Assembly (NCBI GenBank): GCA_963823335.1
Contig: CAWGLD010000001.1
Span: forward strand, 608,001 to 672,000
DNA: 64,000 nucleotides
Reading direction: 5' to 3'
Source of the DNA: an uncultured delta proteobacterium
Lineage (GTDB): Bacteria > Desulfobacterota > Desulfobacteria > Desulfobacterales > B30-G6
Both the position numbers and the translations under genes were made by a program. Of this stretch, positions 6,380 through 37,648 are shown piece after piece. Below the pieces are notes generated by a model. The model saw only the letters and a list, made by a program, of their open reading frames with translations, did no database searches and was not told the origin of the DNA. How positions within the stretch are numbered: the stretch's first letter is position 1; every line of letters begins with the position of its first letter.

Positions 6380-6991
6380 CTATTTTTTATTACCAATTAA
6401 CAGACCGGTCAAGTAAGTCCCACCGATGGCCAGGCATTCCATATCGATGTGCTTTTCGGCAGATTGCCGGAAAAGAATTGATGTTTGGGCCGGGAACATG
6501 TCATCCCGGTCGTTGAAACGAAAAAAAACCGGTACGCGGGGCAGCATCTGAAACATATAGGCCACATCGAAAGCAGGTGCTTCCATGGCACGGCCCCCCA
6601 TTTCCCGGCAGGCGGATTTCAGCCGATCGATGTGCCCGGCAAAGGTGGTTTCGATGATCTTATTGGTGTTGCTTGTGAAATAGCCGGTCAAGGGCCCGGC
6701 ATCCTTGAACTCGCGATAGGTCACCCACTCGCCGGGTTCAGGCTCCATTTCCGGGCACTGCAGGACATAGCAGCACAACAGCACACTCAAGGCAAAGGTG
6801 GCCTTTTGACCGGCGGCATTCAGAACCCCATCCTTTGATACCTGGTGTGGCTCGCCATAAAAGGAAATCACAAGCCTATCATCCTGTATGGCCCCGCCCA
6901 GAATGTCAGCTCTTGATAAAAGATCGATACCGGCGATCCGTTCCAGGTATTTATGGTAGGTTACTTCAAATACTTCTGCTTTTTTCATCAT
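6380..6991 (-). CDS. DUF3786-like protein
   Basis: LLCCYVLQCP...WVTYREFKDAG...LPRVPVFFRFNDRDDMFPAQTSILF...DMECL. Confidence 0.75.
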   Translation of the reverse strand: MMKKAEVFEVTYHKYLERIAGIDLLSRADILGGAIQDDRLVISFYGEPHQVSKDGVLNAAGQKATFALSVLLCCYVLQCPEMEPEPGEWVTYREFKDAGPLTGYFTSNTNKIIETTFAGHIDRLKSACREMGGRAMEAPAFDVAYMFQMLPRVPVFFRFNDRDDMFPAQTSILFRQSAEKHIDMECLAIGGTYLTGLLIGNKK

Positions 6992-6998
6992 GTCCCTT

Positions 6999-7619
6999 CT
7001 ATTGAACGATGACAATTCCCGCCAGGGTCCCCTTGGGTATGGTCTGTGGTTTGGCACCGCTGCCGATGGGATAAATGTCCCAGCCGGCTCTGGCCGTCAT
7101 TTGATAGACATCGATTCCCACCGCCTCCATGGATGGCCGGGCAACCAGAGAGAAGCGGCACTTCTTGCCTTCCATGGCCTGACAGGTGTCCATCTGCCCG
7201 CAAAAGGTATGACGGCAGGAACCTGCTGCAAATCCAAATGCATGGTAATGACCATCATAAAAGGCCTGGGATTCGATTTCACTGACCATCTTATAGACTT
7301 TCTGATAGGCATCCACCCGTTCCTTGATGGTCTTCCTGTCCCGAACGATCACTTCCGAAGGCACATCCATAATGAAAAACACGGCCCATTCAAAGCCCTT
7401 CAGGATATCGCGCAGTTCCTCCGGGGCCAGGGTATTGGGGGGACAATGCGCCCCGGCACCGTATCCGAAACAGCGTGGGACCTGGCACTTGAGGGTAATC
7501 CGCCGATCCACGGGGATATCTCCGGCTGAAACGATCGTGGCCTGGGTTGCCCCAAGGGTCAGAACATTTTCACAATATTTGTGGAGGTTTTCCTTGAGAT
7601 CACCTGCATTTCTATCCAT
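6999..7619 (-). CDS. DUF2284 predicted metal-binding protein
   Basis: KCQVPRCFGYG...CPP, GSC...C...C...C...ARPSMEAVGIDVY. Confidence 0.85.
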   Translation of the reverse strand: MDRNAGDLKENLHKYCENVLTLGATQATIVSAGDIPVDRRITLKCQVPRCFGYGAGAHCPPNTLAPEELRDILKGFEWAVFFIMDVPSEVIVRDRKTIKERVDAYQKVYKMVSEIESQAFYDGHYHAFGFAAGSCRHTFCGQMDTCQAMEGKKCRFSLVARPSMEAVGIDVYQMTARAGWDIYPIGSGAKPQTIPKGTLAGIVIVQ

Positions 7620-7681
7620 GGTGATTTTATCGATCTGTTTTTCCAAAACACTTCTCCTCTGGTTCTGAAGCACATCCTTTC

Positions 7682-7827
7682 TAAAAGGCTTCTCAAAAAG
7701 AGGATTTTGGGTCAAGGTCAAGGCGGGCGATCACTTCAACCCGCAGGAATACTTTTGTATTTTGAGGAGTTGGAGCGTGAGCCCAACACAGAGATTGATC
7801 CAAAAGGCCTTTTTGAGAGGCTTTTTA
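7682..7827 (-). repeat. MITE-like repeat family A (reverse copy)
   Basis: Terminal IR TAAAAGGCTTCTCAAAAAG / CTTTTTGAGAGGCTTTTTA; internal similarity to 23638-23780 and 41306-41477. Confidence 0.8.
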
Positions 7828-29293: not shown

Positions 29294-29561
29294 GACGCAA
29301 CATATAGCATACAATACCCGTTGTTGCAACAACATGAAGTGTTCTTGACATAGAACCGGATCCCCATAGAAAGATGTGTTCCAGGTTGCCTGTTCGTCCA
29401 ATACGTGGCCCGTTGGTTTTACGAGTCCATATCCTGATATTGCCGAAATAGACTCCCGATCCTTTCACCGGCCCCCTTGCATTATGCTTTTTTTGGCTAT
29501 AGAATAACTTACCCTTGCCGGGTTCAGCAAATACGAAATGAAACAAGGAGACGAACCGTCC

Positions 29562-30902
29562 ATGAAAAAAGAGAAAGGTTTCAGCGTCAAGGATGTTTTA
29601 AGAGCGGAAGTGGCCCCTGCGCTGGGGTGTACTGAGCCAGTTGCCATCGCACTGGCCGCCGCCGCCGCTGCTTCCCTTATCCCGGGTGAGCCGATTACCG
29701 CTATAGAAATCTGGGTGGATCCCAATATTTACAAGAACGGTATCGCCGTGGTTATTCCCGGAACCAGGGGACTGAACGGCCTGGATTTGGCCGGTGCGCT
29801 GGGTGCGCTGGGTGGTGATCCAGCCCGTCGTCTGGAGGTGCTCGCAACCATCGACAAAACAGTTGTTCGCAATGCCAGGAAACTTCTGGATCGAAAAAAA
29901 GTGTCCATCAACCTCCTGGAAGAGCGGCAGGGAATCTATGTCAAGACCATCGTCAGGAGCAACGATAAGGCAGCCGAAGCCATCATAGAAACTCTGCATG
30001 ACAACATTGTTTCTTTGAAGGTAAATGGACAGCCTGTCGTGGACAACGTGCTCCTGTCCACCGGAAAAGATGGTGGGCAAAAGTCAAAACTCCTGCACGT
30101 AGAGGCGTGGTTGAAACAGCTCAGCCTGATGGAACTGGTTGAACTCCTGGACAATCTGGATGAAGATGATTTCACATTTTTAGAAGAGGGCGTCCAGTAC
30201 AACATGCGTCTGGCTGAATATGGTCTCAAACATGGATCCGGGCTTGGCATCGGCAAAACGCTGGAAAGACTTGTCAGGCTGGGCCTGATCCGGAAAGACA
30301 TGATCGTCGCCTCCAGGATTCTAACCGCTGCAGCGTCCGATGCACGCATGGCGGGTGTCTCCCTGCCAGCCATGAGTTCATCCGGAAGTGGCAATCATGG
30401 GCTTACTGCCATTTTACCCATATGGGCTGTCAAGGATTATGTTGAATGCGACAGACGGGTCGTTCTTGAAGCCATCGGCATCAGTCATATCATTACCGCC
30501 TATGTCAAGGCGCATACGGGCAGGTTGTCTGCCGTTTGCGGTTGTTCTGTGGCCGCGGGCGCAGGTGCAACAGCAGGAATTACCCACCTTCTGAATGGGA
30601 CCCTTGGTCATATGGCCGGCGCCATAACGAACCTTACCGAAGACCTGGCCGGTGTCATTTGTGACGGCGCCAAAGCAGGCTGTTCCCTGAAACTGGCTAC
30701 CGCTGCCGGAACAGCGGTTCAGTCAGCTCTCTTCGCCCTTCAGGGGGTGCAGGTACAATCCACGGATGGCATTATCGCTGCTTCAGCAGAAAAAACAATG
30801 CAGAATATCGGTCGACTGAGCACCCAGGGTATGATCGAAACCGACCGGACCATACTTAAAATTATGCTGGAAAAACAGTTTTCAGATATCAAGGAAATAT
30901 AG
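29562..30902 (+). CDS. L-cysteine desulfidase-like (CyuA/YhaM, serine dehydratase alpha family)
   Basis: PALGCTEPVAIA, SDARMAG...SSSGSGNHG, GRLSAVCGC, GVICDGAKAGC. Confidence 0.88.
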   Translation: MKKEKGFSVKDVLRAEVAPALGCTEPVAIALAAAAAASLIPGEPITAIEIWVDPNIYKNGIAVVIPGTRGLNGLDLAGALGALGGDPARRLEVLATIDKTVVRNARKLLDRKKVSINLLEERQGIYVKTIVRSNDKAAEAIIETLHDNIVSLKVNGQPVVDNVLLSTGKDGGQKSKLLHVEAWLKQLSLMELVELLDNLDEDDFTFLEEGVQYNMRLAEYGLKHGSGLGIGKTLERLVRLGLIRKDMIVASRILTAAASDARMAGVSLPAMSSSGSGNHGLTAILPIWAVKDYVECDRRVVLEAIGISHIITAYVKAHTGRLSAVCGCSVAAGAGATAGITHLLNGTLGHMAGAITNLTEDLAGVICDGAKAGCSLKLATAAGTAVQSALFALQGVQVQSTDGIIAASAEKTMQNIGRLSTQGMIETDRTILKIMLEKQFSDIKEI

Positions 30903-30911
30903 GAGGTAAGC

Positions 30912-31379
30912 ATGCAAACAGCCAAAAACATGGTGGCGGGCAAAGGACGTGAAATCGTGTCGGTTCCCGTGGGAACGACCCTTTTTGCCACCCTTGAAAA
31001 AATGAATCAGAAAAAAGTTGGTGCCATTCTTGTCACCAGAAACGAAAAGATTGTCGGCATCTGGACCGAAAGAGATCTTATGCAGGATGTCATCCAAGGG
31101 GGCTTTGACCTTAAAAACGCGTTGATCGAGGATTACATGACCACCCAACCGATTTCAGCACCCCACACCGATACGGTCTTCAATCTCATGGACAAATTCC
31201 TGGGGCTCAGGGTCAGACACCTGTTGATCGAAGAAAACGGCAACATTATCGGCCTGGTCTCGGGAGGGGATGTCATGAAATGCGTTATCCATGAAAAAGA
31301 CGCCGAGCTGAAACAACTCAATTCCATGGTGAGCTGGGATTACTACGAAAACTGGAAATGGAAACCCGAAGATCGTTGA
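30912..31379 (+). CDS. CBS domain protein
   Basis: KKVGAILV...VGIWTERD...RVRHLLI. Confidence 0.88.
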   Translation: MQTAKNMVAGKGREIVSVPVGTTLFATLEKMNQKKVGAILVTRNEKIVGIWTERDLMQDVIQGGFDLKNALIEDYMTTQPISAPHTDTVFNLMDKFLGLRVRHLLIEENGNIIGLVSGGDVMKCVIHEKDAELKQLNSMVSWDYYENWKWKPEDR

Positions 31380-31385
31380 AAAGAA

Positions 31386-31802
31386 TCATCCTCTGGGCGG
31401 ACTAACCATGGCCTCCCCTTGCAGCACAATGACGGCATCCTGATTCATACAGACTGTTTTCAGACGCACCTTTTTCTTGTCTATTTTTTCGACCACTTCC
31501 ACGCGCGCAGTGATGGTATCCCCCATGTAAACCGGTGCTAAAAAAGAGAGGGTCTGCTGCATGTAGATCGATCCGGGGCCCGGAAGTTGTGTCCCTATCA
31601 CGGCCGATATCAACCCTGCCGAAAGCATGCCATGTGCAATACGCGTCTTAAAAAAAGTACTCCGGGCATAAGCTTCATTGACATGGGCTGGATTGAAATC
31701 CCCTGAAATTCCCGCATACAGATAGATGTCCGCCTCTGAAAACGTCTTGGAGAATTCAGCACTATCCCCCAGGCAGAGCTGATCATATGTTTTTCCGATC
31801 AT
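31386..31802 (-). CDS. MaoC-family (R)-specific enoyl-CoA hydratase
   Basis: SGDFNPAH, RIAHGML, LPGPGSIY, FLAPVYMGD. Confidence 0.9.
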   Translation of the reverse strand: MIGKTYDQLCLGDSAEFSKTFSEADIYLYAGISGDFNPAHVNEAYARSTFFKTRIAHGMLSAGLISAVIGTQLPGPGSIYMQQTLSFLAPVYMGDTITARVEVVEKIDKKKVRLKTVCMNQDAVIVLQGEAMVSPPRG

Positions 31803-31921
31803 CGGTGACTCCTTTGACTTCATTTCTTTATTCTGAACCACCTGTTTTCAAGTCAGGTTACTTTTCGTGATCGTGTCTGTCAACAAGGTATATTTTAGTC
31901 GCACTCCTACAAATTTCTACC

Positions 31922-32006
31922 TTGACATATCGAGCATATGAACCCTATTGTTAGTGAATAATTAAATCGATAGCCCCTGGGTGAAAATTTTCATGACAGG
32001 GGATAT
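31922..32006 (+). promoter_or_regulatory. Putative sigma70 promoter and palindromic operator upstream of tetR
   Basis: TTGACA (31922)-18 nt-TATTGT; perfect palindrome TGAAAATTTTCA (31982-31993) flanked by CCCCTG / CAGGGG. Confidence 0.45.
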
Positions 32007-32090
32007 GAAACGATGTGCCAATTTGCGCGTCGTGCCGATTGAAACATAAGAACGAATACTTGTAGCAAGAAGACTATACAGGGAGTCTCT

Positions 32091-32666
32091 ATGAAAAAAT
32101 ATGACATCATTGACACGGCAACACGGCTTTTTGCCACCCAGGGTTTTGATGGGACAACGACGCTGCAGATCGCAAGGGAAGCCAAGGTCACCGAACCCTT
32201 GATTTATTACCATTTTGAGGGAAAAGACGATCTTTTTACCCATATCATTCGCAATGGCTTCGAGGCCTACTTTACCCGACTGGAATCGCTGAACCAGAAA
32301 ACATCGACACAATTTGAAAAAATTGAAAATATTTTTACCCTGCACTTTGATTTTATCAATGAACGACCGGATGAGATATATCTGGTTGTCAGTGCTTGTC
32401 CGGCCAAACTCAAAGACGCCAAACATATCTGCACACAAAAACTCGATAAGCAGCGCAAGTGGCTCGCGGCATATCTGAGAAAATGTATCAAGGAAGGTAT
32501 TGCGAGCGGTGAATTCAAAGAGATGCCGGTTTCCGAAACCGTAACGCTGCTACTTGCCGTCATCAGCGGCATCATCCGTCAGCGTACGCTGAAACTTGAG
32601 TCCCGCAGGGGAATGAAAAAGGCGGTCGTTGAATTCTGCCGCAGAAGCATGGTGCAGCAGGACTAA
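32091..32666 (+). CDS. TetR/AcrR family transcriptional regulator
   Basis: LFATQGFDGTTTLQIAREAKVTEPLIYYHFEGKDDL HTH. Confidence 0.92.
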   Translation: MKKYDIIDTATRLFATQGFDGTTTLQIAREAKVTEPLIYYHFEGKDDLFTHIIRNGFEAYFTRLESLNQKTSTQFEKIENIFTLHFDFINERPDEIYLVVSACPAKLKDAKHICTQKLDKQRKWLAAYLRKCIKEGIASGEFKEMPVSETVTLLLAVISGIIRQRTLKLESRRGMKKAVVEFCRRSMVQQD

Positions 32667-32673
32667 CCCGGGC

Positions 32674-33180
32674 ATGACACTTGAACCCCAATTGGTTCCC
32701 GTCCTCAGGGAGGGAATCGATGTCATCAAGATGGTTCTGTTCCGGGAACTGAAATCATTGCTGCTTTCCAGGGGCAGGGAACCGGTCTATGTAAACAAGC
32801 TCACGGGCGCTGTGGTGAATGAACTTTTCGGTATCATGCCTCCGGGAGCGGTCATTGAAAGTTTCAGCCGGACAAACCAGGATGCCGTCCAAAAGACACT
32901 GGGAATGATCTCCACAAAACTCGACCACCTCAAGATACCCTTGACAGATGCCCTGCGTATTCAATTTCTTTGTGACAGCCATGAGGGCTTGAACAGCACT
33001 GCTGTTTTGGAAAAAGCCCAAAAGCGTGACATTCTGATTGTAGAAAGGGACGTGCCCCTGCCGGGTGCATTCATGAATATCGTTCGCAGTTTCGGCAGGT
33101 CCTATGGGATCCTTGACCCACAACCATTGACCACACCGGGAACGACACAGACAAACCAGCATGGAGGAATTGTCAAATGA
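32674..33180 (+). CDS. Hypothetical protein in the mttB-mtbB operon
   Basis: Starts 7 nt after tetR; its stop overlaps the mttB start (ATGA). Confidence 0.7.
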   Translation: MTLEPQLVPVLREGIDVIKMVLFRELKSLLLSRGREPVYVNKLTGAVVNELFGIMPPGAVIESFSRTNQDAVQKTLGMISTKLDHLKIPLTDALRIQFLCDSHEGLNSTAVLEKAQKRDILIVERDVPLPGAFMNIVRSFGRSYGILDPQPLTTPGTTQTNQHGGIVK

Positions 33181-34673
33181 ATGAAAAAATTCAGCCACAA
33201 AGGTTGAAACCCCCTGCAGCGACGGGACTCCACATGGATATCCTGTCCGAAAAAGAGCTGAATGACCTCCACGACAGCACCCTTAAAGTCCTGGAAAAAA
33301 CGGGTCTCTTTATCGACAATGATGCGGCTTTGGATTGCTTTGAGAGGGCCGGTGCAAGCATAGATCGCAAAAGCGGCATCGTCAAGATACCGCCGCGGCT
33401 GGTGGAAGAAGCCGTTCAATCCGCCCCTTCAAAGGTCATGCTCGCCGGTCGTGATCCAAAACACGACCTGGTGCTCGGAGAAAATCGTGTTCACTTCACC
33501 AATTTCAGCGAAGGCGTCAAAATCAACGACCCATACACCGGTGAAAACAGGCCACCGGTCAAGAAGGATCTTGCGGATGTCGCACGGGTCATCGATTCTC
33601 TGGATGAAATTGACTTCTGTGAGAAAGCCATCGGCGCCCATGACGTACCCCAGGAGACCGTTCCCCTGCACAATGCCGAAGCTTTCCTCACCAACACCAC
33701 CAAACACTGTGCTTTTGGGCCCGGCAACGGAAATCTGCTCAACAAAATCATCGAAATGGCCGCCATCATCGTCGGCGGCGTCAAACAACTGGCAGAACGA
33801 CCCATCGTGTCATTCACTACCTGTCCGGTGAGTCCTTTGAAGCTGATCAAGGAATGCTGCGAGATCATCATGGTGTCAGCCAAAAACAATGTCGTATGCA
33901 ATATATTGTCCATGGCCATGGCCGGCGCCACATCCCCCGCAACCCTTGCCGGCACCCTGGTGACCCACAACGCGGAAATCCTGGGTGGTATCACGCTTTC
34001 GCAGTTGACCCGCAAGGGGGCTCCCGTGATTTACGGAAGTTCCACCACCGCCATGGATTTGAAGCTGGCCGAAGCATCGGTGGGCACACCCGAGTGCGCC
34101 CTCATCAGCGGCGCCGTAGTTCGGTTGGCGCGCTATTATGCGTTACCCAGCTACGTTGCCGGTGGGTAGGGCGACGGCAAGATATCAGACAGCCAGATGG
34201 GCCACGAAAAAACTCTCACCGGACTGATACCCGCATTGGCAGGTGCCGATATGATTTACGGTCCGGGGATGCTTGAAAGTGGCATCACCTTCGATCTTGC
34301 CCAACTGGTTCTCGACTGTGAATTTGCTCGTATGATAAAACATACCGTCAACGGTATTCCCGTTACCGAAGAGACCATTGCCCTGGGTGTTATCCAGGAA
34401 ATCGGGCCATTTGGCGATTTCCTGGCGCACAGGCACACATTTCAACACATGCGGGAACAATCGAGAGCCGAGATCATCGATCGCAGAATGCGAAGCGCCT
34501 GGGAGATGGACGGCGCCACCGACAGCTATACAAGGGCATGTCACAAGGTCCGCCAGATCCTGGAAAACCATTTTCCGGAGCCACTTCCCCCCGGCGTGCT
34601 GGCCAAGATCCGGCGTATCGTGCAAAAAACGGAGACCGAAATGGGTATTGCAAGCCCTGCTGAATCTTCATAG
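33177..34673 (+). CDS. mttB: Pyrrolysine-containing trimethylamine:corrinoid methyltransferase (TAG at 34167-34169, codon 331)
   Basis: ORFs 33177-34169 and 34197-34673 are in one frame. Context LPSYVAGG-TAG-GDGKISDSQMGHEKT matches the Pyl site of methanogen MttB; 498 aa in total. Confidence 0.93.
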
Positions 34674-34705
34674 TTTAATATGCAAACGAGGGTTCGAGGA
34701 GAAAT

Positions 34706-36127
34706 ATGAATAACCGAATTCTAACCAGAATGGGTGACGGCGAACGAAAATGGCACTCAGAATCCGATGTCCGAGCAGATATCGACCAAGGTACAGCCGA
34801 TGCTGCCAAAAGGGCCGCTATCCCCGCATTGACAGACGAAGAGAAAAGCCAGCTTTTCGATATCATGGCAGATCCCTCCAGAATTGTCAGTGTTCATCCC
34901 GGAGAAGAAGTCATTGTCACCGATGATGGTTGCAGCATGAGTTTCTACTCGGGTCAGGACGGCGGTGGTGTGGGTATTCCCATGAGCCGTATGCAGGCCG
35001 TACTCACCTATGAGCGCGCATGCTGCGGTGACACGACATCCATCGGTCACAGTGATTATTCTTTCAAGCCGGTCAAACCCATCATCAATTTTGAAAAAAA
35101 TGATTATTACAACATTTCCATGGTGTCCACGGCACCCCTTTTCTACGGGGCACAACCCAACATGGGTCTTTACTTTCAACCGGACGGACCCTGCCCCAAC
35201 CCTTCGGAACTTCTCCCCATCGGTAAAATTGCCGAAGCACTTCAGGCACAGGAAGAGGCCGCCGAACATCTGACCAGGGATCTGGTCTATGTCGGCAAGA
35301 AAATGGCCGAAGTGGGGTGTGAAGGACTCAATTTCGACACCTCCGGGTCAGCGGGAGATGCAGATTTCCTGGCAGCCCTCAGGGCCGTGGAAGCATTGAA
35401 GCAGGCAGTTCCGGATATGCCGATACTCATGGGGGCTTCCGGAGAATTCGTTATCGGTATGCACGGTGATGTTGCCTATAAGAATCAGCGTCTGGCGGGT
35501 CTCTACCCTCACGAGCAGGCCAAGGTGGTTTCGGACGCAGGTGCCGATGTTTTTGGTCTTGCCATCGGCACCAATACGACCCGGTCCGTGGCCTGGAATC
35601 TTTCCAGAACAGTGACCTTTCTAAAGGAAACCACCGCCACATCCCCTATTCCGGTGCATGCCAACGTGGGCATGGGTGTCTGCGGTATCCCCATGATGGA
35701 ACAGACACCCATCGACAGTGTGACACGCGTTTCCAAGGCCCTGGTTCAGATTGGTAAAGCAGACGGATTGTAGATTGGCGTAGGTGATCCCTTTGGGATG
35801 CATATGGCCCATATTCTGGCTTCATGCATGGGTGGCATTCGGACTTCCGGAGATCTGGTCGCCTGGATGCAAATAACCCGCAGAATGAAAATTAATGAAG
35901 CCAAAAAATATGTGGCCAAAAAATTGAATGTCAATATTCTGGATCTGACCGACGAAGAGGTGATGCGCCCGATCCGTGAAGAACTGGGTATCGGCGTGGT
36001 TACCTCCGTTGCCGGCAGCCCCAAAGGCATCCGGGCAAAATGGAAAATCGCCGAGCTTCTGGACATTTCCATACGCTCGGTCGACCTGTTCAAATCACAA
36101 CTGTCGCCTGAACATATTATGAGATAG
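34706..36127 (+). CDS. mtbB: Pyrrolysine-containing dimethylamine:corrinoid methyltransferase (TAG at 35771-35773, codon 356)
   Basis: [29 protein letters not shown], then [17 protein letters not shown]...[14 protein letters not shown] matching the MtbB Pyl site; 473 aa in total. Confidence 0.93.
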
Positions 36128-36132
36128 CCGGG

Positions 36133-36735
36133 TTAAGACAAGATACGCGTTTTGCTGCCCATGACCCTTCCTTGACATGCAAAATACTGCAGCGCCATCC
36201 ACAGCTTGACGTCACACATGGCGGTGCCGTCTGCAATGATTCGGGATGCCTCGGCAGAGGACAAGAGACAGACCTGGATGGTTTCGGTCCCTTGGTTTTT
36301 TTCGGTGGAAGGAACACCGTCACAGTCGCAATGGACCAGAGCAACCGATTCATCGGTCAGACCGGCGGTGTTGTACAGGGGTGGACTGATGCCCGTGATG
36401 CATTTCAGCGACAAGCCGGTTTCTTCCATGAGTTCCCGCCGGGCAGCCTCCTCAATGCTTTCACCGTCGTCGATCAGGCCTGCCGGAAATTCATATTGAA
36501 AACCTGCCAGCGATACCCGGTATTCCTTAAGCACAACCAATTTTTGTTCGGTGGTGTGAAACGGGATCATCAACACCGCATCAGGGATATTGAATTGACC
36601 CGAAACACACTTGGGCCGGCGGTTTCTCGATACGATCTGCCAGTTTCTCTTTCCGCCGACTTTATCGGTATAAGATATATCGAACAGGTTGATCCATTTG
36701 GCTTCGGTCAGTTTCTTAAATCCAGTTATTTTCAT
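36133..36735 (-). CDS. NUDIX hydrolase (ADP-ribose pyrophosphatase-like)
   Basis: EFPAGLIDDGESIEEAARRELMEETG Nudix box. Confidence 0.9.
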   Translation of the reverse strand: MKITGFKKLTEAKWINLFDISYTDKVGGKRNWQIVSRNRRPKCVSGQFNIPDAVLMIPFHTTEQKLVVLKEYRVSLAGFQYEFPAGLIDDGESIEEAARRELMEETGLSLKCITGISPPLYNTAGLTDESVALVHCDCDGVPSTEKNQGTETIQVCLLSSAEASRIIADGTAMCDVKLWMALQYFACQGRVMGSKTRILS

Positions 36736-36857
36736 GTTATACCTTCTTGGATGTCTAACAGTTGGGATCCCTTTTCGTGTTTTTAAAATTTCGTGTTTTC
36801 GTGATAAGTTTTTTTCCCCGCTTTTTAGATTAACAGCTTATGAAATTCTCATCAACA

Positions 36858-36999
36858 TTGAAGAACCTCGCAGCAAGCTACGAGGAATCTTCGACCGTAA
36901 GGAATTCTGTCTAATCTAGATTCGCTCGCTAACCCCGCAGCATGCGAAGCACTGCCGAACGGCAGAACCTACGGGGAATGCGCTCGCTTTTTCGGTTCA
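36858..36999 (+). repeat. Repeat family B, longest copy
   Basis: TTGAAGAACCTCGCAGCAAGCTACGAGGAAT...CCCCGCAGC...CTACGGGGAAT...CGGTTCA with two hairpins. Confidence 0.75.
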
Positions 37000-37062
37000 T
37001 ATAATATCCAGGTATTGCGACATGCCTAGCATTTCACCGGATAACCATCATAAACCTTTTTA

Positions 37063-37222: not shown

Positions 37223-37648
37223 ATGATTCAGGTCACATCGAACATTCAAATCCATGAAAGTGATATGACCTTCGATTTCATTCGGGCATCCGGACCGGGA
37301 GGCCAGAATGTGAACAAGGTTTCCACGGCGGTCCAGCTTCGCTTCGCGGCCCTTCAATCCGGCAGTCTTCCCCCCGAGGTTTACTTTCGTCTGAAAAAGC
37401 TGGCGGGAAAACGGATCTCGGCGGAAGGCGTCCTGATTATCCAGGCCAAACGTTTTAGAAGTCAGGAGAAAAACCGTCAGGATGCCATCGAGCGCCTCGT
37501 CAGACTGATCCGGAAAGCAACTGAAAAACCAAAACCGCGCAGGAAAACACGACCTACAAGAGCCTCGAAAGAACGTAAACTGGCTGCCAAACAGCTTAGA
37601 AGCCGTTTGAAAAAAACCCGTCAACGTGTGTCGAGAGCAGACGACTGA
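37223..37648 (+). CDS. arfB: Alternative ribosome rescue peptidyl-tRNA hydrolase ArfB (YaeJ)
   Basis: IRASGPGGQNVNKVSTAVQL...RSQEKNR; basic C-terminal tail. Confidence 0.93.
   Translation: MIQVTSNIQIHESDMTFDFIRASGPGGQNVNKVSTAVQLRFAALQSGSLPPEVYFRLKKLAGKRISAEGVLIIQAKRFRSQEKNRQDAIERLVRLIRKATEKPKPRRKTRPTRASKERKLAAKQLRSRLKKTRQRVSRADD

Follow-up and report, generated by a model that had tools for sequence, protein, structure and literature searches.

We analysed a 64-kb window (C1:608001-672000) of a Desulfobacterales genome that is assembled into 11 contigs (C1, C2 and so on below; 4.37 Mb in total, 93.9% complete, 4.6% contamination). The window carries a four-gene unit, tetR-orf168-mttB-mtbB, in which the last two genes encode methylamine methyltransferases and are each interrupted by one in-frame TAG. 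This is very probably a TetR-controlled operon of a sulfate-reducing sediment bacterium, each enzyme of which is completed by a single UAG translated as pyrrolysine (Pyl). Coordinates without a contig name refer to the window.

The four genes form one tight unit on the + strand. The first, tetR (32091-32666, 191 amino acids (aa)), encodes a TetR-family regulator with a match to PF00440 (TetR_N, 63.2 bits, residues 6-50) and weak, below-cut-off matches to TetR_C models. It is followed after 7 nucleotides (nt) by orf168 (32674-33180, 168 aa, ATG at 32674), which has no Pfam or NCBIfam match and whose stop codon overlaps the mttB start by 4 nt (ATGA). The gene for a Pyl-type trimethylamine (TMA):corrinoid methyltransferase, mttB (33177-34673), and that for a Pyl-type dimethylamine (DMA):corrinoid methyltransferase, mtbB (34706-36127), are separated by 32 nt, and a NUDIX gene converges on the unit 5 nt past the end of mtbB. 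Translation with table 11 yields four open reading frames (ORFs) from the methyltransferase pair: 33177-34169 (330 aa), 34197-34673 (158 aa), 34706-35773 (355 aa) and 35798-36127 (109 aa). When TAG is read as a sense codon, these become two proteins of 498 and 473 aa, in which the recoded residues are 331 (TAG at 34167-34169) and 356 (TAG at 35771-35773), respectively. The terminal stop of both genes is also TAG. An earlier reading of the letters alone (the sequence-only reading) had placed two adjacent methyltransferase genes here, with one TAG each at 34167 and 35771, behind a TetR gene and an uncharacterised 168-aa ORF, and had expected standard annotation to break the pair into four fragments; its positions, its description and the fragmentation were all borne out.

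The read-through proteins are recognized as complete enzymes. MttB matches TIGR02369, the NCBIfam equivalog for [trimethylamine--corrinoid protein] Co-methyltransferase, with 718.2 bits (cut-off 525) over model positions 2-469 of 469, and gives one Pfam MTTB match (PF06253, 313 bits) that runs from residue 15 to residue 490 across the TAG. MtbB scores 544.9 bits against TIGR02368 (cut-off 369.1), and its single Dimeth_Pyl match (PF09505, 648 bits) likewise crosses the TAG, extending over residues 7-464 and profile positions 5-462 of 463 (458 positions). With one continuous Pfam match across each TAG, the continuation of the reading frames cannot be due to chance.

Both TAG codons fall where pyrrolysine is expected, as had been supposed from their contexts. 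MttB aligns with Methanosarcina barkeri MttB (PDB 7xcm_A, E 5.8e-111) over residues 14-486, which puts residue 331 on chain position 334, the site of Pyl334 in that enzyme (Li et al. 2023, PMC9842639). Its Tyr364 and Met249 have equivalents in Y361 and M246 of the window protein, and all 11 orthologs retain them. For MtbB we found no solved structure in the PDB with which to align it. The TAG column of MtbB is constant, and the pyrrolysine of archaeal MtbB presumably lies near residue 356 too. In addition, Rfam models for the sites begin exactly on each codon: PYLIS_3 (mttB) at 34167-34266 on the + strand (72.4 bits, gathering score 38, E 6.8e-14) and PYLIS_2 (mtbB) at 35771-35870 on the + strand (73.8 bits, gathering score 36, E 4.9e-17). 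As both models lie over coding regions, we take them as site markers, not as proof of an RNA structure.

The same codon recurs at the same place throughout the relatives of the two genes. A tblastn search of the genome with MttB gave 20 matches, with a stop at the Pyl column in six full-length copies and in one 56-aa fragment, an ordinary residue there in 12, and the column uncovered in one; MtbB gave five matches, all with a stop at the column. Each of the 11 full-length Pyl-column stops (six mttB and five mtbB, the window pair included) is TAG, so that the five other full-length Pyl-mttB paralogs and all five genomic Pyl-mtbB genes agree with the window. Every one of the 11 mttB orthologs in other genomes likewise has TAG here, and codon 356 is TAG in nine of nine mtbB orthologs. 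The orthologs are 75-91% identical to the window pair at the protein level, and the parts after the TAG are conserved equally (72-87% identity after the TAG versus 75-91% before it). Their terminal stops, by comparison, vary among TAA, TGA and TAG. Taken together, the sequences indicate that both genes are full-length Pyl-type methyltransferase genes with the TAG at the catalytic column.

These data bear directly on the idea that the TAG codons are true stops, the genes being pseudogenes or split genes from which just N-terminal fragments are made. TAG is indeed an ordinary terminator in this genome: the 2655 ORFs of at least 200 aa end in TAA (1155), TGA (937) or TAG (563, or 21%), and the next in-frame stop is no nearer after TAG than after the other stops. 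However, the TAG column is identical in all 11 full-length paralogs and in the 11 mttB and nine mtbB orthologs, the downstream parts are as strongly conserved as the upstream parts, and the genome holds a complete set of pyl genes (see below). No nonsense mutation would be preserved like this. We therefore reject the pseudogene reading, which we regard as extremely improbable.

The search for pylT, pylS and pylBCD, on which the pyrrolysine reading hinged, found every one of them, outside the window. A tRNA-Pyl with a CUA anticodon (pylT, C2:80111-80184, - strand, detected by ARAGORN) lies directly upstream of pylSc (C2:79183-79914, 326.6 bits, cut-off 178), and the cluster continues with pylC (C2:78045-79142, 389.6 bits, cut-off 248), pylD (C2:77134-77955, 251 bits, cut-off 150) and pylSn (C2:76703-76969, 133.1 bits, cut-off 51). 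PylS is thus split into PylSc and PylSn. The remaining gene, pylB (C1:1461420-1462460, 455.1 bits, cut-off 348), is unlinked from this cluster and stands about 817 kb from the operon; in its neighbourhood are an aldehyde:ferredoxin oxidoreductase, a class-III aminotransferase, a pterin-binding enzyme (three genes away) and ABC transporter genes. PylSc was detected in eight of the nine other genomes in the genus and in 13 of 14 in the family; of the 46 further families sampled from the order, only four have it. This distribution indicates that pyrrolysine use is a trait of this lineage.

UAG might also be read through without pyrrolysine, a near-cognate tRNA or another suppressor inserting a standard residue. 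The only CUA-anticodon tRNA among the 46 tRNAs found, however, is tRNA-Pyl, immediately upstream of pylSc, and Li et al. (2023, PMC9842639) place the pyrrolysine of MttB at the active site, with a proposed role in TMA binding and activation. We consider this route very improbable, and pyrrolysine insertion remains our preferred explanation.

The upstream region suggests how the operon may be controlled. A putative sigma-70-like promoter (TTGACA, 18 nt, TATTGT; 31922-31951, + strand) lies about 140 nt upstream of tetR and matches the consensus at 10 of 12 positions in a promoter scan. It is situated in the sole invariant block of eight aligned upstream regions (present in 8/8), the flanks of which diverge. 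Between it and tetR two hairpins are predicted in the leader (31972-32033, + strand; z-score of the leader fold -4.0 over 31958-32095), and an inverted repeat is found at 31970-31979 and 31997-32006; this could be a structure of the 5' untranslated region or a TetR operator. In an alignment of five sequences the pairs of the hairpins are mostly kept, but with a term of +0.28 covariation does not back the structure, and its support is weak. Rfam, run over 31300-37000, reported nothing besides the two PYLIS matches. The regulator itself is conserved, being 80-93% identical and in the same position in seven related loci.

Nearly identical sequences also occur in environmental RNA data. Seven estuary RNA-seq libraries contain 32-58% of the sampled words of the window, and in four of these, contigs at 90-99% identity cover the locus, bridging all gene junctions and both TAG codons. 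One contig (32355-33807) joins tetR, orf168 and mttB, another (34218-34717) crosses the mttB-mtbB junction, and two others run through the first TAG (33908-34247) and the second (35581-36272).

Methyl transfer from methylamines requires further proteins, which the sequence-only reading had reported as absent. This holds for the 64-kb window, where a Pfam scan of 61 ORFs and the four operon proteins detected no B12-binding, RamA or pyl gene, but not for the genome, which contains four corrinoid proteins (C2:80311-80892, adjoining pylT; C1:1091266; C5:239908; C7:376242), four RamA-like genes (PF14574), nine URO-D-family matches (PF01208, candidates for MT2) and a pterin-binding enzyme near pylB. 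The partners of the operon thus appear to be supplied in trans. Two further proposals, a sulfate-reducer-like organism and Pyl-dependent demethylation of TMA and DMA, also fit the genome. A dsrA gene (616 bits) with an adjacent weaker dsrA-family match, likely dsrB, and carbon monoxide dehydrogenase/acetyl-CoA synthase (CdhC) together mark the organism as a sulfate reducer with a Wood-Ljungdahl pathway, and the TAG codons at the Pyl columns, the PYLIS matches and the pyl genes support the demethylation, with TMA as the presumed substrate of MttB.

From these components a plausible route can be proposed. MttB(Pyl331) would transfer a methyl group from TMA to a Co(I) corrinoid protein encoded in trans, and MtbB(Pyl356) would carry out the same transfer from the resulting DMA. 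A second methyltransferase, of the URO-D type or pterin-binding, would then pass the methyl group to tetrahydrofolate (THF). Its oxidation, coupled to sulfate reduction, would follow the Wood-Ljungdahl pathway in reverse, and RamA-like activases would re-reduce Co(II). TetR may repress the conserved promoter until a ligand, perhaps a methylamine, binds.

Several observations count against this picture, or against parts of it. Pyrrolysine insertion is deduced from sequence, not from observation at the protein level. TAG is not depleted as a stop, and mttB and mtbB themselves end in it; its frequency among the terminators suggests that UAG is read ambiguously or conditionally. The pyl cluster lies on a different contig from the operon, in an assembly with an estimated contamination of 4.6%, a worry countered by the presence of PylSc in nearly all other genomes of the genus. 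No corrinoid gene is adjacent to the operon, and the genome has only four corrinoid proteins for 11 Pyl-type, about 12 non-Pyl MttB-family and one MtmB-family genes; with so few corrinoid proteins for so many methyltransferases, any pairing is a guess. Contigs from RNA libraries may include carried-over DNA, so that the estuary data are consistent with expression without proving it. Finally, MttB has Ser111-Glu112 at the site of Gly110-Thr111 of the M. barkeri enzyme, as do 11 of 11 orthologs, and the Ser at the Gly110 position leaves the specificity for TMA as a deduction.

The last point deserves closer attention, as Gly110, part of a Gly110-Thr111 cis peptide, was reported to be 100% conserved in 66 Pyl-MttBs from UniProt and to act through its main-chain carbonyl (Li et al. 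2023, PMC9842639). The orf168-linked MttB and MtbB might use the same Pyl-dependent chemistry on a different substrate, having diverged from TMA and DMA to other methylated amines that are sensed by TetR. The exchange for Ser in the window protein and all its orthologs, when the five other full-length Pyl-mttB paralogs of the genome retain Gly, would agree with such a shift. So would the six Pyl-mttB and five Pyl-mtbB genes in differing contexts, several of them beside flavoproteins resembling dimethylglycine dehydrogenase (DMGDH), which suggests specialisation, and the distance of the window MttB from its nearest full-length representative among 50% clusters, which is just 57% identical. Yet both proteins score far above the cut-offs of the TMA and DMA equivalogs, the Tyr364 and Met249 equivalents are kept, and Gly110 works through its main-chain carbonyl.

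The position is also less strict than the UniProt set suggested. Among 57 of 150 cluster representatives, those ending at the Pyl column, it is occupied by G in 40, by S in five, by D in three, by L and A in two each and by Y, R, K and M in one each, with a gap in one; that is, 12 of the 57 have neither G nor S. Gly at position 110 is thus typical, not defining, and the assignment of the window protein to the MttB family is kept. The notion that Ser111 is unique to the orf168-linked clade was ruled out by the same sample, in which five representatives carry it. Overall we judge a change of substrate quite unlikely, and TMA and DMA remain the presumed substrates of the operon.

The conserved orf168 is a real gene with no recognizable domain. 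We collected 271 homologs (E<=0.001), none of them named and none with a Pfam domain, and the motif PLTDALRxQxLCD is invariant in an alignment of 45 sequences. Within the genus orf168 is present in eight of nine other genomes, and within the family in 12 of 14; the genome itself contains no paralog.

To survey gene order we took one genome per species, giving 132 relatives, mostly from Desulfobacterota and some from Nitrospirae, of which 80 were kept; the locus counts refer to these 80. The order tetR-orf168-mttB-mtbB recurs at six loci. Another locus has orf168-mttB-mtbB with the contig cut upstream, one has tetR-orf168 with the contig cut downstream, and at four orf168 precedes a Pyl-mttB gene, in three of these cases after a non-Pyl MttB-like gene. 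At the other 68 the fetched flanks contain no mttB, mtbB or tetR. The linkage with mttB is limited to a subclade of orf168 proteins at least 47% identical to that of the window. At ten distant loci the genes nearby are unrelated; they encode TPR proteins at two loci, molybdopterin oxidoreductases in a pair of Desulfacinum genomes, and other proteins elsewhere. The gene context of the 80 loci gave no clue to function.

The predicted structure is no more telling. A confident AlphaFold2 (AF2) model (pLDDT 86.5) is all-alpha with seven helices, for which Foldseek returned no match in the PDB at E<=0.001; a wide VIA-align search reached a best Z of 5.5, in the noise range for helical proteins, and the ESM Atlas gave no usable match. 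A TetR-like domain was considered and rejected, as the orf168 alignment, compared by hhalign with the TetR next to it, reached a probability of 0.6%. Complex prediction of orf168 with the two halves of MttB delimited by translation table 11, run with alignments, gave a score of 0.00 (mark 0.32), which is evidence neither way. One could imagine that tetR-orf168-mttB-mtbB is a distinct, lineage-specific Pyl-dependent demethylation system, in which a Ser-clade MttB acts on a methylated amine other than TMA and orf168 is a new accessory or regulatory factor (for example in assembly, in docking of the corrinoid protein, or in ligand sensing with TetR). We hold this to be unlikely, and keep to the TMA and DMA operon described above.

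The window operon has a counterpart in the same genome. A second Pyl-mttB-mtbB-tetR module, also with PYLIS_3 and PYLIS_2 matches, lies by the pyl cluster (C2:76703-88028). Its proteins are 58.7% (MttB), 48.9% (MtbB) and 42.6% (TetR) identical to those of the window. Unlike the window operon, this module adjoins pylT-Sc-C-D-Sn and a corrinoid gene, has its tetR downstream and convergent, and lacks orf168; its MttB keeps Gly at the Gly110 position where the window protein has Ser. Among the paralog loci examined, this is the only one with an adjacent corrinoid gene, so that corrinoid partners in trans are the rule in this genome. The window operon looks as if a TetR-linked module had been duplicated and had then diverged. 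The gene for a 670-aa hydantoinase/oxoprolinase-like protein (C2:81269-83278, - strand) lies between the corrinoid gene and the mttB-mtbB pair on C2.

Other methyltransferase loci of the genome differ in content. Pyl-type mttB genes stand beside DMGDH-like flavoproteins (DAO-FAO_M-GCV_T) at C7:53677-59529 and C6:87179-94355. At C5:308404-313491 a non-Pyl MttB-family gene is found beside such a flavoprotein, and the same locus contains the 56-aa mttB remnant with TAG, 78.6% identical to the window MttB. The single MtmB-family gene (C7:374563-375909, - strand, 292 bits) has no in-frame stop and is located beside the corrinoid gene at C7:376242 and a URO-D gene. A non-Pyl MtmB homolog was linked to the use of tetramethylammonium and choline in a 2026 paper (PMC13044021), and by analogy the C7 gene may encode a quaternary-amine enzyme. 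Two URO-D-family (MT2-like) genes, C5:244023-245006 and C7:372504-373487, have one in-frame TGA each and may encode selenoproteins; a tRNA for selenocysteine (Sec) is present at C6:16589-16686.

Elsewhere in the window, 1.1 kb downstream of the operon, a 141-aa RF-1-domain protein resembling the peptidyl-tRNA hydrolase ArfB/YaeJ is encoded (37223-37648, + strand); its proximity is probably coincidental. At 29538-31379 (+ strand) a CBS-domain gene begins 9 nt past the terminal TAG of a serine-dehydratase-alpha-like gene and in the same frame; reading the TAG through would fuse the two, yet they seem to be ordinary separate genes. An overlapping pair at 6380-7721 (- strand) consists of a DUF3786 gene and one for DUF2284 (predicted metal-binding).

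Systems of this kind have already been published: Pyl-type MttB and MtbB are known from sulfate-reducing Deltaproteobacteria through reports of 2007 (PMC1976440) and 2021 (PMC8318568). Zhang and Gladyshev (2007, PMC1976440) described eight Pyl-containing MtbB/MttB genes, some of them clustered or in one operon, in the delta-1 symbiont of Olavius algarvensis, together with pylT, pylSn, pylSc, pylB, pylC and pylD and many selenoproteins. In that symbiotic bacterium pylB-pylC-pylD form an operon, whereas here pylB is separate from pylT-Sc-C-D-Sn. Kivenson, Paul and Valentine (2021, PMC8318568) reported marine sulfate-reducing Deltaproteobacteria with Pyl-MttB and Pyl-MtbB, proposed methyl transfer to THF and found transcripts in situ; the amber codon of their MttB is at position 327 of 485, there are up to five copies of the TMA methyltransferase per genome, and a cognate corrinoid gene lies within 10 genes. 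The present genome resembles theirs in being that of a sulfate reducer with Wood-Ljungdahl pathway, Pyl and Sec machinery and several TMA methyltransferases, the amber codon here being at 331 of 498. It differs in its six full-length Pyl-mttB and five Pyl-mtbB genes and in having no corrinoid gene within 64 kb of sequence around the operon. In the passages of that paper that were searched, neither a TetR regulator nor an orf168-like gene is mentioned.

Compared with the MttB-MttC system of M. barkeri (PDB 7XCL/7XCM/7XCN; PMC9842639), the window MttB has equivalents of Pyl334, Tyr364 and Met249, and Ser-Glu in place of Gly110-Thr111. In M. barkeri the methyl groups proceed toward coenzyme M and mttC is adjacent, whereas the window operon presumably delivers them to THF and has its corrinoid gene in trans. 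What the locus adds to these systems is modest: the conserved order tetR-orf168-mttB-mtbB, an orf168 family that extends across Desulfobacterota, an MttB clade with Ser for Gly110, and an unlinked pylB. It is a clean and verifiable case of bacterial genetic code expansion that leaves the known picture of such systems unchanged, and it supports the idea that sulfate reducers and methanogens are competitors for sediment methylamines. With 11 full-length Pyl-dependent genes and TAG as a common stop, the genome is useful for asking how bacteria tolerate an ambiguous UAG, and the conserved TetR and orf168, which the consulted parts of the compared papers do not describe, offer handles on the regulation of these methyltransferases.

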